Made by a program: the position numbers and the translations under genes. DNA of 64,000 bases from Octopus vulgaris. Taxonomy: Eukaryota. The stretch's first letter is position 1. Each line of letters opens with the position of its first letter. Under the pieces are notes generated by a model. That model was not told where the DNA came from, did not search any database, and worked only from the letters and a program-made list of their open reading frames with translations. Below are positions 14,541 to 47,392 of this stretch, one piece after another. Where the stretch lies: positions 209,684,001 to 209,748,000 of the forward strand of contig OX597814.1 in the NCBI GenBank assembly GCA_951406725.2, in the 5' to 3' direction.

Positions 14541-15198
14541 TAATAAATAATAATTAATAAATATAAGGGTAGCAAAAAATTCTAGATAAAATTCTCCGCT
14601 ACCAGCGGTTCAGCGAGAAAGAAATTATAGTCAAAGACTATATACTATACATTCAACAATATAAGGAATGGCCATAATAGGACATTCGACTCACTAGAAA
14701 GAGCAGCCAAACTCAAACCGCAAATTAGTTGTAATTCTGAAATAGAAAGAGAATTAAAACGTTTACCCCTTTCATCTCTGGACTATGCATAGTTTCGGCA
14801 AACTTTGTTAAACAAATTAATTAAATTAAATTAAATTTATTTACAACTGGATGCCTCGTCAGCAGAGAAGCCAAGGACAAGTATATATCCACGAGGCGAG
14901 GGTAAGGAAGCCTCCAGTCTATATGCTATAAATTTTCAAAATCTACCGCAATCGCGCGGTCTTCTCAGCAGTAAATATAAAGTGCTAATTTAATTTCAAA
15001 ATTAGCCAAAAAGTTATTAATTAATAAATATAAGGGTAGCAAAAAATTCTAGAAAAATAGTTGTAAATAAATTTAATTTAATTTAATTGATTTGTTTACT
15101 AAAGTTTGCCGAAACTATGCATAGTCCTGTGATGAAAGTGTAAACGTTTTTATTTCTCTTTCAATTTCAGAATTACAACTATTAGCGGTTTGAGTTTT
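14541..15198 (-). mobile_element. Non-autonomous Penelope-type / retrozyme-like element, 467-bp unit with hammerhead
   Basis: 36-bp direct repeat 14551-14586 / 15018-15053. Inverted copy 15059-15198 of ~14709-14848. Hammerhead at 14776-14867, (TA)n on both flanks, no ORF. Confidence 0.8.
14776..14867 (-). ncRNA. Type I hammerhead ribozyme
   Basis: Minus strand reads ctctg CTGACGA ggca-[AT-rich loop]-tgcc GAAAC tatgcata GTC cagag. Stem I ctctg/cagag, stem II ggca/tgcc, palindromic stem III actatgcatagt, GUC cleavage triplet. Confidence 0.9.
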
Positions 15199-15510
15199 AC
15201 ATATATATATATATATATATATATATATATATATATGTGTGTGTGTGTGTGTGTGTGTGTGTGTGTGTGTGTGTGTGTGTGTGTGTGCGTGCGTGTGTGT
15301 GTGTATGTATATATATATATACATGCATATATACATATATATATACATACACACACACATATATATATATTCGAGTATGTCTATTTATTCAAATGTATTG
15401 GATGAATCTACACTCATGTATTAGTGGTACATAATATCAAGTAGAAAAGTTGGTAATTGCATAAACAAGGGTGTGGAAGCATGTGAGCATATAAAAACTA
15501 GTGAGTAATT

Positions 15511-15722
15511 GAGTAAATGAGCAAATGAGCAGATTGCCACTAAAACCGAATGGGTATGTGGGTGCTAATTCCTTACGGCCGTTTCTGCCAAGAGGCAACG
15601 AAATCTTCCAGATTATCTCAACCTCCTTACTCTCTCTATCGTTGCCTCGTGGCAGAAACGGCTGTAGGAATTAGCACCCGCATACCCATTCGGTTTTTGT
15701 GACAATCTGCTCATTTACTCAT
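15511..15722. repeat. Inverted pLTR pair (arms 15511-15600 / 15640-15722) containing the hammerhead 3' half
   Basis: gagcagattgccactaaaaccgaatgggtatgtgggtgctaattcc and its reverse complement. Motif tgcc-tctt-ggca GAAAC ggcc GTA agg. Confidence 0.85.
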
Positions 15723-15749
15723 TTGCCCAACTGGGATGAAAAACTACCT

Positions 15750-16520
15750 ATGTGAAAAAAGACACCAAAACCGGAAGTAATTTTACATTGATAAACAAAG
15801 TTTCTAGTCTTAGAATTACTGCTAAGGACATGAATGCGATTGGAATTTATATGAAAAACACTAATATAGTAGTCTTTATTGTTCAAAGAATGGTTGGTGT
15901 TAATAATATCAATGTTATTATTTTCATTAAGTGAGTTGGTATTTAACAACTTATTGTTATGTGAAGAGATTATTTGTAAAAAGATTTTTGGTGTTTGAAA
16001 ACCCTATTCTGATTCGGTGTGAATCGATAATAGAATGGTATCTTAAATCTTTTGGGAAATTCTTATCTATAGCTTCACGGAACTGGTAAGGGAGGTTGGA
16101 TTTGATCTGCTTACCATGTGGAATTATCAACCAAACAGTTTTACTAGGACATACCTTGTTATTAGGGTAATTATCTTTAAAAGTCCTAGATGTACTTTTA
16201 TAATAAAAAAAGGAGGCTTAAATAACGGTTATCTCCCTTACGGTGCAAAACCTAATTTTTCGATGTAGTGTTGTTATTCGAACTAAAATTTATATTGTTA
16301 TTACCATTATGCCCTGATTTCATGTCCTGATAAATAGAGGTAGAATTAATGTCAATAGGGTTAATATACATAATATTTTCTTTACAGCCTGCTTTAAGTA
16401 AAGCAGATTTATAAAATGCGGTTTTTTCATTGAAGATATCAATATTGGCAGATAATCTAGAAAGTCTACGTGAAATATTTCTAAATTCCCTGTAGTAGCC
16501 TTTGTATGATGTCTAACAAC
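15750..16520 (-). mobile_element. Naiad-type Penelope-like element fragment (RT thumb and linker)
   Basis: Minus translation RLSANIDIFNEKTAFY..ALLKAG and WLIIPHGKQIKSNLPYQFREAIDKNFPKDLRYHSIIDSHRIRIGFSNTKNLLQIISSHNNKLL aligns by eye with the ORFs at 60343-61699. Confidence 0.8.
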
Positions 16521-16689
16521 CTTTCAGTCTGTCGTCAAAATTATCAAAATTCGTCAGTATATCGGTGTGTGTGTGTGTGTGTGTGTGTGTGTATGTGTGT
16601 GTGTGTTTGAGAGAGCCATATGGACAATAATATTCCGAACGTACAGTCATACATATACATACTGACTACCATACATGCTGATATATATG

Positions 16690-16870
16690 ACACAACATAT
16701 ATTTATATATAGTTGAATTTTATAGGAGAACAGAAGACGAAAACAAGTGTATGCACAACAAGCAAGTGTGTTAGTTTGACGCTCGGGAAAATGAGAAAGT
16801 CTTTTACGTTTCGAGCCTGCGCTCTTCAGTAGAAAGGTACAAGAGAAAATAAACAGAGTGAGAATGAAAA
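16690..16870 (-). mobile_element. PLE pseudo-LTR remnant with minimal hammerhead-like motif (16801-16836)
   Basis: Minus strand reads cttt ctactgaa GAGC gcag GCTC GAAAC GTA aaag. Same family as 55575-55700. Confidence 0.6.
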
Positions 16871-17070
16871 ACCTGAGAACCCTGTTCTTTGGACTTGCAT
16901 ATCTGAACCACTTTCCGAACTTTCAGCACCTCTCCTCATTCACATACTAGCACTCTATCCGGATTACCACTGGATCTACTGATTCTGCCTTTACGGATCT
17001 CAATGGAGATTTTCGTTCGTATATATATATATATATATATATATATATATATATATATATATATATATAT

Positions 17071-45008: not shown

Positions 45009-45094
45009 GAGGTGTTGTAGCTACTGTTTATAACTCGCTCTGAGATTTATTATTATCTTTAATTGTGGCACGCAAATTATAACGAATGCACTTG

Positions 45095-45230
45095 GCCTTG
45101 TGCTAGATTGTTAGGTTCACGACCATGATGTCCTGGATTCAATTCCTGGGCCGGGCCGTACGTTTTTAGTCCTTGAGCAAGGTATTTCATTTCAAATTGT
45201 TACAGTCTGCTCAACTGTAAATGAGTACTA
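45095..45230 (+). mobile_element. Degenerate CORE-type SINE
   Basis: ggattcaattcctgggccggg..gtccttgagcaaggtatttcatttca..ctcaactgtaaatgagta, similar to 8865-9000. Confidence 0.6.
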
Positions 45231-45631
45231 GTCAGCTTTTCTCTCTCTCCGTCTCTCATATCCTGGATGTGCTGTTGGTGTTATATATCTACTCACGACT
45301 ACGTAAGTACCTAAACAAATTGTCGTAATCGTCGTACATAATACCAAATCATACATGTTCGCGCGTAGTGTTTACTTCACATACAGTTATTCGATCTTAT
45401 GCTGTGACCACATCAACCTTAACATCTGGCCATCTAACTTCCCAGATTGCAACCCACTTGATTATTATCTGTAGGGCGCAGTTGAGCGAGAGACTAACAA
45501 AACTCCTTGTAACACAAGTGCTCTGCAAAATCTAGGTACGTGACAGGAATTACATGAGTTAGGACCTCAAATGGGAGACGTAGTTTATTATTGTCAAAAT
45601 CTGCCAGGTTCCAAAAGTGGGTACATATATA

Positions 45632-46050
45632 CTCTCTCTTTTACTCTTTTACTTGTTTCAGTCATTTGACTGCGGCCATGCTGGAGCACCGCCTTTAGTC
45701 GAACAAATCGACCCCGGGACTTATTCTTTGTAAGCCCAGTACTTATTCCATCGGTCTCTTTTGTCGAACCGCTAGTTGACGGGGACGTAAATACACCAGC
45801 ATCGGTTGTCAAGCAATGCTAGGGGGACAAACACAGACACACAAACACACACACACATACATATATATACTTATATGCATATATACGACAGGCTTCTTTC
45901 AGTTTCCGTCTACCAAATCCACTCACAAGGCATTGGTCGGCCCGGGTTCTATAGCAGAGGACACTTGCCCAAGATGCCACGCAGTGGGACTGAACCCGGA
46001 ACCATGTGGTTGGTTAGCAAGCTACTTACCACACAGCCACTCCTGCGCCT
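45632..46050 (-). mobile_element. tRNA-derived SINE family A, full length
   Basis: Minus head aggcgcaggagtggctgtgtggtaagtagcttgc..ggttccgggttcagtcccac. Confidence 0.93.
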
Positions 46051-46637
46051 ATCATTAAATAAATTGGAACTTAACTCATAATATGATTTCTTCATCACCA
46101 CATGTACTGCAGTTCCAATATTTAGATGTGTGAATTTCTTCTAAATACTCTGTTTAATGCACGCTATGATCTTAATTTTTCTCCCATGGGTCGTTTGCCT
46201 GTTGATACTCCAATATCAAGTTAAAATAAAAGTTGCAAACGAAATAGCAGTTTTCAAATTCTCTTAATCATCTGTTATTAATTACATGAACTTTATAGAA
46301 TTAAGTTACGAAATATATAATTGATATTTAGAGCGTATCTGCAACCCAACCTCATACCTGAGACAATGAACTGCTATAAACGTGCTGGAAAATAGCTTCA
46401 TGTATAACATGAACGATAACTGTTCAAGAGAATCTGACAGTTGGATAACCGTTCATTAAAAGCAACTCCGAGCCCTTTACGATTAGCCTTATATATATAT
46501 ATATATATATATATATATATATATATATATATATATATATATATATATATATATATATATATATATATGTATATATATATAGGCATAATTAAATCTCAGA
46601 ATGAGATTGAAACAGTAATCGCTCGATAATGTAAAGT

Positions 46638-46686
46638 ATAGAAGCCATCTTATCATGTGGTTAACCATGATAAGATGGCTTCTATA
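46638..46686. repeat. Short palindrome in a (TA)n-flanked fragment
   Basis: tatagaagccatcttatcatg-tggttaac-catgataagatggcttctata. Confidence 0.85.
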
Positions 46687-46730
46687 ATATATATATATAT
46701 ACATATATATATATATATATATATATATAT

Positions 46731-47392
46731 ACGATATAGTGTATATTTAAACACATAGAGAATCGACTTATAGGAATTATACGCGCTAGAAAGAACAGCT
46801 AAGTTCTATGACCACTGGAAATGTAAATTTTAATTGAATATTATTAATTTTAATTAAATTCCATTTCCCTTTGGTATGATTAAATACTGTAAGTTTTGGG
46901 ATAATTTTCGGTTAATAAGTTGGCGGTTTTTTATTGTAGCCAACGAAGGACTGCGTCTGCGCAGTAGATTTGAAAAGTTGGCTCGTATAAACACGAGACA
47001 GGAAACCGAGTTTGTCTTGTGTGGATATGTTTAACACTATGTTGGACCTGCTGAAGAAAATCAAACCTTGTGGGTTCTCCATGACTCGCTAAAAGATGAT
47101 TAGAAACCAATTGGTCCAGGAAACTAGATGGTAAAAGTTTTTCATCCCCAAATTTATTACTGTCGAATTTTATCCCGAATTTTTTGTGGTCATATAAATT
47201 AGCTGTTCTTTCTAGCGCGTAGAATCCCTATAAATGGGTTCTCTATGTGTTTAAATACACACTATATCGTATGGCTAATATATGGTCTTTTTGACTAAAA
47301 TTTTTTTACGCGTTAGACCACTGGAAATGTATATTTTAATTGAATGTTTTTAATTTTAATTAAATTCCATTTCCCTTTGATATGATTACATA
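46731..47392 (+). mobile_element. Non-autonomous Penelope-type / retrozyme-like element, 506-bp unit with hammerhead
   Basis: Direct repeats 46810-46886 / 47316-47392. Inverted copy 46731-46813 of ~47187-47271. Hammerhead at 47047-47120, (TA)n flanks, no ORF. Confidence 0.82.
47047..47120 (+). ncRNA. Type I hammerhead ribozyme
   Basis: cctg CTGAAGA aaatca-[loop]-tgatt aGAAAC caattg GTC cagg. Stem I cctg/cagg, palindromic stem III accaattggt. Confidence 0.88.

Follow-up and report, generated by a model that had tools for sequence, protein, structure and literature searches.

The 64-kb stretch of the Octopus vulgaris genome analyzed here (contig OX597814.1, positions 209,684,001 to 209,748,000; hereinafter the window, in whose own coordinates all positions are given) carries two short repeats, e1 and e2, each of which contains a hammerhead ribozyme motif and encodes no protein. 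Sequence comparison identifies them as divergent homologues, alignable over most of the unit length, and both share a predicted folded 3' RNA domain in which a conserved sequence, box 2, forms in the structural model one strand of a covarying helix common to at least four families of such elements. Both repeats are very probably non-autonomous Penelope-like elements (PLEs). As PLE-derived hammerhead repeats are a class that is already known, the valuable part of the finding is the shared covarying domain. The survey covered the window, and only the e1 family was traced in sequencing runs.

Anatomy and homology of e1 and e2

When re-read in the sequence, both elements were found at the coordinates and on the strands given in the initial annotation, with units of 467 and 506 nt, between (TA)n runs (Table 1). 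On the ribozyme strand, each consists of an inverted partial copy, followed by a short direct copy of the 3' end and then by one unit. The direct repeats (43 nt at a spacing of 467 nt in e1 and 82 nt at a spacing of 506 nt in e2) create a partial tandem with a pseudo-long terminal repeat (pLTR), the upstream 3'-end copy measuring 43 nt in e1 and 77 to 82 nt in e2, and the 5' inverted partial copies are identical to the unit in 129 of 141 and 77 of 85 alignment columns, respectively, so that both kinds of repeat noted previously are present. The main arms amount to 1.09 units in e1 and 1.15 units in e2, with a single sense ribozyme per locus. Non-LTR retrozymes comprise at least two consecutive units, each with a complete hammerhead; neither locus has this tandem arrangement, so the elements are not filed here as retrozymes, the name used in the initial annotation. 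The reported absence of an open reading frame (ORF) holds: the longest ATG-started ORFs have 26 (e1) and 56 (e2) amino acids, and tblastn revealed no coding remnant. Both insertions lie in AT-rich microsatellites without a discernible target site duplication; the GC content of the units is 34%, below the 45% ceiling of retrozymes, and the unit sizes are within the range of 150 to 1000 nt.

The two units, previously described as distinct and devoid of obvious overall similarity, are in fact homologous, with a local alignment score of 103 against 32.7 +/- 5.1 for shuffled sequences (z 13.8, reached by 0 of 300 shuffles). A partial tandem with an adjacent inverted truncated copy in a (TA)n target is the insertion pattern of PLEs (PMC8557442, PMC3846280), and a head-to-head, 5'-truncated inverted copy beside the upstream pLTR is seen in e1, e2 and four further insertions of the window (e4a, e4b, e5 and e6). 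This tandem and inverted anatomy, together with the multi-copy nature of e1 across several species labels (see below), bears out the earlier assignment to a non-autonomous, PLE-type family.

Table 1. Coordinates of the elements, their modules and neighbouring PLEs in the window
Feature	Position	Strand	Remarks
e1, non-autonomous PLE-type insertion in (TA)n	14541..15198	-	467-nt unit preceded by an inverted and a 43-nt direct partial copy
e1 inverted partial copy of 14709-14848	15059..15197	+	spans the hammerhead cleavage site, uncleaved
e1 direct copy of 3' end, short pLTR	15015..15057	-	41/43 identical
e1 box 1	14933..14964	-	5-6-bp hairpin, purine-rich flanks, 50 nt past the unit junction
e1 type I hammerhead motif	14775..14868	-	core from 14862, predicted cleavage after 14781, stems 6/4/4
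e1 structured 3' domain	14605..14721	-	P0 14721-14717 with 14605-14609; box 2 14694-14710; P1 14695-14690 with 14612-14617
e1 terminal hairpin	14568..14603	-	16 bp, followed by the AT-rich 3' end
e2, homologous insertion in (TA)n	46731..47392	+	506-nt unit preceded by an inverted and a 77-82-nt direct partial copy
e2 inverted partial copy of 47186-47270	46731..46815	-	meets the main arm via 6-nt microhomology, which is helix P0
e2 box 1	46945..46976	+	6-bp hairpin within a longer stem; one C-G pair of e1 replaced by U-A
e2 type I hammerhead motif	47047..47120	+	core from 47051, predicted cleavage after 47116, stems 4/5/3
e2 structured 3' domain	47186..47321	+	P0 47186-47190 with 47317-47321; box 2 47199-47215; P1 11 bp, 47214 with 47314
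e2 terminal hairpin	47323..47374	+	
e4a, other family, head-to-head, (TA)n-flanked	9670..9945	+	same 3' domain at 9777-9896; inverted arm reaches 32 nt beyond the box
e5, fourth family, head-to-head	32379..32830	+	terminal hairpin and same 3' domain (32653-32773); inverted arm reaches 53 nt beyond the box
e4b, short head-to-head e4-family copy	56580..56730	+	ends ~40 nt past the box; model E 0.095
e6, head-to-head	4938..5135	+	3' half of an e4-like domain and terminal hairpin; weak model match, E 0.16
PLE3, frameshifted autonomous-type PLE with Hydra-clade motifs	56768..63027	-	78-nt direct repeat; 3' motif at 56986 resembling a hammerhead; candidate helper type
PLE2, degraded Hydra-type PLE	49468..53240 (about)	+	CxCx5C, YIG; candidate helper type
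Third Hydra-like PLE fragment, degraded	15975-16482	-	adjoins a palindromic element

The type I hammerhead motifs with palindromic stem III are present in both elements as annotated: the core is canonical in e1 and carries an A-A mismatch (10.1-11.1) at the base of stem II in e2. A descriptor requiring a palindromic stem III matches the window at 3 sites, where 20 simulated windows averaged 0.05. A search of the window against Rfam at E<=1 returned 141 matches, nearly all of them to microsatellites or hairpins and none to a hammerhead or other ribozyme family, probably because stem-loop II is 45 to 58 nt long in e1 and e2. The order and spacing of the modules are likewise maintained, with 70 nt (e1) and 73 nt (e2) from box 1 to the hammerhead core, 71 and 83 nt from the cleavage site to box 2, and post-ribozyme regions of 233 to 276 nt. 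In folds of the full unit, the ribozyme helices are improbable (pair probability <=0.12 in e1 and approximately 0 for stems I and III in e2), which fits gated cleavage; processing by the hammerhead is likely slow, dependent on dimer formation or on a protein, and not obligatory.

Box 1 was detected as exact matches in e1 and e2, at the annotated positions, and nowhere else in the 64 kb, a count that is post hoc because the pattern was derived from these two elements themselves. With three mismatches allowed, the chance level averaged 0.24 matches, and 1 of 100 shuffles reached two. The folding stability of box 1 alone is unremarkable (z -0.2 in e1 and -2.4 in e2), and it does not occur in the truncated copies, found here, of two families that carry the 3' domain. 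The proposal that box 1 is a conserved functional element is supported, although the stronger signal comes from box 2 and not from the box that had been singled out. Box 1 may be a promoter or an RT (reverse transcriptase)-binding element located 50 to 85 nt downstream of a distal start site in tandem or circular RNA. The bases flanking its hairpin (14944 and 14961) vary at similar frequency in e1-family reads (~43-47% in sequencing run X1), possibly as a G-A to A-G swap.

A predicted folded 3' domain

Folding of the post-ribozyme regions of e1 and e2 predicts that box 2 is the 5' strand of a helix that closes a multibranch domain of ~120 nt and is followed by a terminal hairpin. The inner closing helix, P1, starts at the AG of box 2 and encloses three or four hairpins (three in e1); the strands of an outer helix, P0, differ between e1 and e2 by a C-G to U-A swap. 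The terminal hairpin follows P0 in e1, e2, e5 and e6 and is weak in e4. A mismatch-tolerant search with box 2 produced 9 matches in the window against 0.57 expected; these matches and the palindromes of the window led to two more families that have the complete domain (e4a and e5) and to two incomplete copies (e4b and e6). A descriptor combining P0, the box and P1 found 5 sites against 0.43 expected, with 0 of 60 simulations reaching 5; the latter count is post hoc because the descriptor was redefined once, after the first choice of anchor gave two matches and overlooked e1 and e4.

The two helices covary among the four families. In the alignment of the four full domains (e1, e2, e4 and e5), from which the structure was itself partly derived, 41 of the 44 P0 and P1 cells pair, and 5 of the 11 pairs change on both sides. 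This level of pairing was reached by none of 500 shuffles, a count that is not to be read as a probability, and slid controls paired at 29 to 52%. The three unpaired cells all belong to P0 of e4, which was shifted by one column in the MAFFT alignment and pairs at 5 of 5 positions in register. The same P0 and P1 helices were obtained unprompted by RNAalifold from the four-way alignment, and the minimum-energy structures of e4 and e5, which were folded after the helices had been proposed from e1 and e2, have the same topology. The pair probability of P1 is 0.75 to 1.0 in all eight folds. Variation within the e1 family points in the same direction: of 12 variants, taken from 40 of 68 table rows, 5 fall on modelled helices, where four keep or repair a pair and one breaks a terminal pair. 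The three in the closing helix all preserve or restore pairing, among them a nearly fixed variant at 14610 that mends a C-A mismatch. The 3' domain is probably a real, selected structure; whether it serves as an RNA module for recognition by RT is an evenly balanced question.

Some candidate occurrences of the domain were discarded. The descriptor match at 11693-11840 and a box match at 26624 show neither a model match nor the anatomy of an element. A scan of metagenomes gave no matches and then seven with a looser box pattern, and viral contigs gave one; all eight loci were judged to be chance, being devoid of (TA)n, of a full domain and of BLAST similarity to the window.

Copies, ends and the proposed mechanism

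Parts of e1 are found in 20 of 24 listed runs, which come from ten studies under four coded organism labels, none of them recorded as RNA. Contigs matched to e1 at 80% likeness in the four runs used (X1, X2, X3 and X6, from organisms A, B, C and A) number 1308, 637, 664 and 73, respectively, most of them 90 to 99% alike. Judging by these sequences, e1 represents a multi-copy family that, being present in organisms A, B and C, predates the divergence of at least three species labels. In X1, the contig depth, summed over contigs and hence not equal to the copy number, is 217,000 to 235,000 over box 2 against 7,000 to 15,000 between box 1 and the ribozyme; set against a single-contig depth of 24 to 86, the value over box 2 suggests, as a rough estimate, thousands of copies. 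Joints going back 455 to 462 nt reveal the head-to-tail junction with longer upstream copies (59 to 68 nt) in three of the four runs; no contig in the four runs spans a whole unit, the head-to-tail joints being only 59 to 68 nt deep. Opposite-strand joints at 14619/14948 and 14656/14960 are inversions in other copies of the e1 family; those at 14714/15192, 14882/15062 and 14912/15087 were dismissed as artefacts of the inverted duplicate in the reference itself.

Measured from the A of the AG in box 2, the 3' ends cluster, among the few copies available, in two zones, at 31 to 57 nt and 125 to 178 nt. Full arms make up the distal zone, whereas the inner one includes the inverted or short arms (+57 in e2, +53 in e5, +32 in e4a and +40 in e4b) and the loose ends of the e1 family at +49, which run into TA in X1, X2 and X3 of the four runs, and at +31. 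Counted from the cleavage site, the inner ends of these elements lie 117 to 155 nt downstream. Since an intact cleavage site is present in each of the two arms of e1, they were copied from a template that was either uncleaved or religated.

These observations are moderately likely to reflect the copying of protein-free hammerhead repeats in trans by a PLE RT that recognizes the conserved folded 3' RNA domain. The template would be a transcript longer than one unit, either uncleaved tandem RNA or a religated circle, because copies run through intact cleavage sites. The PLE protein would bind the P0/P1 multibranch domain and the terminal hairpin, its GIY-YIG nuclease would cut both strands of (TA)n, and each strand would prime a complementary DNA (cDNA), one starting from the distal site and the other usually from the inner site, within or just past the domain, after which the two cDNAs would be joined head-to-head by microhomology. 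The model for this is the Anolis PLE Poseidon, in which RT starts internally at two sites in a stem-loop downstream of the hammerhead, ~85-90 nt beyond the point of cleavage, and both target strands are extended; uncleaved RNA is used, and 172 nt from the start of the ORF are needed (PMC11167929). The pLTR sequence alone is reported to suffice for mobilisation in trans (PMC3846280). The helper RT would be that of a Hydra-clade PLE, a likely candidate source suggested by co-occurrence, by the (TA)n target and by the style of the ribozyme: Hydra-1_Obim from Octopus bimaculoides prefers (TA)n, although Naiads target it likewise, and hammerheads of the Hydra clade mostly have a stem III of 3 to 4 bp, while stem II often starts with a base that is unpaired or mismatched, as it does in e2 (PMC8557442).

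Several results weigh against this reading. The pair probability of P0 depends on context (0.0 to 0.99), the minimum-energy fold of e2 deviates in two of its folds, one of the five descriptor matches (11693-11840) is probably due to chance, and the support for the domain comes from only four full copies, the same ones from which its structure was partly derived. The inverted arm of e1 itself stops 14 nt short of the AG in box 2 rather than at the inner site, the inner ends are TA-rich, so that microhomology with the target alone could place them, and the spacing of the end zones (~90-125 nt) exceeds the 30 to 40 nt of the tails of endonuclease-containing (EN+) PLEs (PMC11167929, PMC3846280). 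As for the helper, the R1 model of the domain had no match at E<=5 at the 3' ends of the autonomous PLEs in the window; e1 shows a weak, AT-rich match to the last ~20 nt of PLE3 (z 3.7, 1 of 300), and the five other comparisons of elements with PLEs or with another repeat, e3, gave z<=1.5. The comparison with the 3' ends of autonomous PLEs covered the PLEs of the window and the supplement of one paper (PMC8557442), in the available passages of which no box motif was detected close to the 3' ends of Hydra or Naiad elements. Finally, the antisense strands also fold well (z -2.7 to -5.0, compared with -1.3 to -5.4 for the sense strands), so that a role at the level of DNA or of an antisense template is conceivable.

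Arms of 1.09 and 1.15 units that cross intact cleavage sites, and head-to-tail joints 59 to 68 nt past the junction in three of the four runs, could also be produced if e1 and e2 were solo or 1.1-mer offspring of non-LTR retrozymes, whose tandem masters would be cut by paired hammerheads to monomers of ~467 and ~506 nt that host ligase would close into circles serving as RT templates. The unit size and GC content fit such an origin (PMC7229834), and a circle model has been proposed for PLE tandems (PMC4209133). However, each locus has one sense hammerhead, no contig spans a unit and the ribozyme helices have the low probabilities given above; moreover, uncleaved RNA is the main substrate in Anolis (PMC11167929), and eight of nine Xenopus dimers showed no cleavage in vitro (bioRxiv 2026.07.22.740005). 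We regard a retrozyme origin as possible but doubtful; it is compatible with copying in trans by a PLE, to which it adds a circle. It is less likely, and in our view clearly unlikely, that e1 and e2 are nothing more than solo pLTRs, or internally deleted copies, from a single autonomous PLE family that has the domain as its ordinary 3' untranslated region (UTR) structure. Vertebrate retrozymes do derive from pLTRs (bioRxiv 2026.07.22.740005), solo pLTRs are known (PMC3846280) and e3 (48918-49440) looks as if it had arisen by deletion from a Hydra-type PLE, but the unit is preceded by the 3' end of the element itself and not by an ORF, in a junction that recurs in other copies in three runs, no coding remnant was seen by tblastn, and at least four divergent families with a mean column identity of ~60% are involved.

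The helices might instead act in DNA or in the antisense strand, through cDNA fold-back, nuclease recognition or self-priming. Besides the significant antisense folds, this agrees with the inversion junction of e2, a 6-nt microhomology that is identical to a P0 strand and uses its complementarity, and with the self-priming on an antisense template proposed for head-to-head PLEs (PMC3846280). Yet P0/P1 includes G-U pairs on the ribozyme strand in each of the four families, which the opposite strand would turn into A-C mismatches, and the sense folds are more stable by 5 to 19 kcal/mol in three of four cases, making this a rather improbable alternative. The least probable one takes the boxes to be splice sites (GT in box 1, AG at the end of box 2) of a retained PLE-type intron holding the hammerhead. 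The GT-AG distances of 253 and 252 nt are indeed nearly equal, box 2 is pyrimidine-rich and AG-terminated in all four families, a common e1-family variant keeps GTR, and introns in PLE pLTRs are known (PMC8557442, PMC4209133). Nevertheless, GTRGAT makes a weak donor site, the branch-like CTAAT of e1 departs from the family majority (position 14725 differs in 91 to 97% of the depth), and the AG is base-paired in P1, which accounts for its conservation; a box 1-box 2 joint is also missing among those listed for one possible RNA run, a weak test confined to contigs.

Neighbouring elements and known systems

The window contains about six insertions of this apparently dense superfamily, of which e4a, e4b and e5 adjoin microsatellite runs. 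The inversion centres of e4a, e5 and e4b (9750, 32550 and 56635) contain short palindromes resembling hammerhead stem III, which may, speculatively, be points of cDNA annealing. Further long palindromes at 5981-6153, 15509-15730, 17070-17155, 44726-45008 and 46637-46686, several of them in (TA)n, are probably head-to-head truncated insertions of other families; the model finds no 3' domain in these five. The repeat e3 looks like an ORF-deleted derivative of a Hydra-type PLE: its region (48918-49612) includes an inverted arm with ~130 nt common to the start of the PLE2 reading frame, and its type I hammerhead (49227, minus strand, site after 49159) is followed by ~240 nt up to the (TA)n end. 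The P0/P1 domain was not found in e3 by the model search.

PLE2 and PLE3, assigned to the Hydra clade by comparison of motifs only, have a C-terminal nuclease, which rules out the label 'Naiad' for them. In PLE3, the motifs IKWK, SDKT, CxCx5C and YIG match the description of the clade (PMC8557442). A single frameshift is apparent in PLE3 near 61685, and its 3' UTR has a tandem array of ~2.7 kb (57600-60350) before the ribozyme-like motif; the two copies of its 78-nt direct repeat are 97% identical. There is also an Asn-rich insert between RT and nuclease, and such inserts have been described for rotifer Penelopes. The 3' end of PLE2 has a hammerhead-like motif (53151-53190, plus strand) with a U4-to-C change, ~55 nt from the (TA)n end, that has probably decayed. 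The PLE fragment at 15975-16482 was considered as a 5' part of e1 and rejected, as it is a separate degraded insertion. The PLE ORFs of the window were not recognised by Pfam. A minimal motif resembling a hammerhead, whose palindromic stem III has 2 bp, was seen by eye at ~16795-16835 (minus strand) and missed by the descriptors; it belongs to a short repeat present twice in the window, and a similar stretch lies at 55581-55692. Other features are a degraded LINE (long interspersed nuclear element) with an RT domain (Pfam RVT_1; 38350-41934, plus strand), a fragment of a mariner-type transposase (PF01359 relatives; 33208-33594, minus strand) and another RT fragment (63330-63950, minus strand); no host gene was noticed in the window.

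The link between retrozymes and PLEs has been argued previously (PMC7229834, PMC4209133, bioRxiv 2026.07.22.740005). Like metazoan non-LTR retrozymes, among which monomeric derivatives are common, e1 and e2 are non-coding, with a type I hammerhead, a unit of a few hundred nucleotides, low GC content and a connection to PLEs (PMC7229834; bioRxiv 10.64898/2026.07.22.740005); they differ in that they are scattered through (TA)n as 1.1-mers, each with a single ribozyme and an inverted 5' arm. No conserved domain for RT recognition is described in the available parts of these two papers. With EN+ PLEs (Anolis Poseidon, PMC11167929; rotifer Penelopes, PMC3846280), they share the partial tandem with a head-to-head inverted copy and an AT-rich target, and on the proposed mechanism also a hammerhead upstream of internal RT starts, two alternative 3' ends and pLTR mobilisation in trans, but they lack an ORF and have a longer post-ribozyme region that includes a covarying multibranch domain. 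Hydra-clade PLEs resemble them in (TA)n insertion, in a stem III of 3 to 4 bp and in the unpaired or mismatched foot of stem II, and the RWK-like, DKT and CxCx5C motifs typical of that clade are present in neighbouring PLEs of the window; in contrast, Hydra-1_Obim ends ~35 nt past the ribozyme, without the boxes in the stretch compared, and the Hydra loops II have 3 to 10 nt (PMC8557442). No sequence link of e1 or e2 to an autonomous Hydra element was found among the window PLEs and in the excerpted supplement of that paper. Chlamys elements such as MRC1 are also non-autonomous PLEs with pLTRs and head-to-tail insertions, but they are green algal, have no canonical hammerhead and generally match the 3' end of a known autonomous partner (PMC8557442). 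No report of octopus elements of this type or of a covarying PLE 3' domain was found in a literature search that left out most subscription papers, and a query for short interspersed nuclear element (SINE) motifs found no paper.

Since non-autonomous elements retain only what the enzyme needs, the conserved set of helices is a candidate for a short, mutable cis-signal, and it makes template recognition by PLEs directly testable. Penelope-like RTs are the closest relatives of telomerase RT. The choice of template and of internal start sites by a PLE has been examined in vitro in just one element (PMC11167929). A tentative extension, which we would not put far beyond a possibility, is that SINE-like, non-coding parasites of Penelope keep a module of ~190 nt (the P0/P1 junction and the terminal hairpin) as an element for RT loading and start-site choice, with hammerhead-made circles as an intermediate. 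If recognition of the domain by a PLE RT is true, it would be the first template-recognition structure of PLEs defined by covariation and a portable tag for PLE insertion into (TA)n, and many of the short (TA)n-flanked palindromic repeats of this genome would be truncated head-to-head PLE products.

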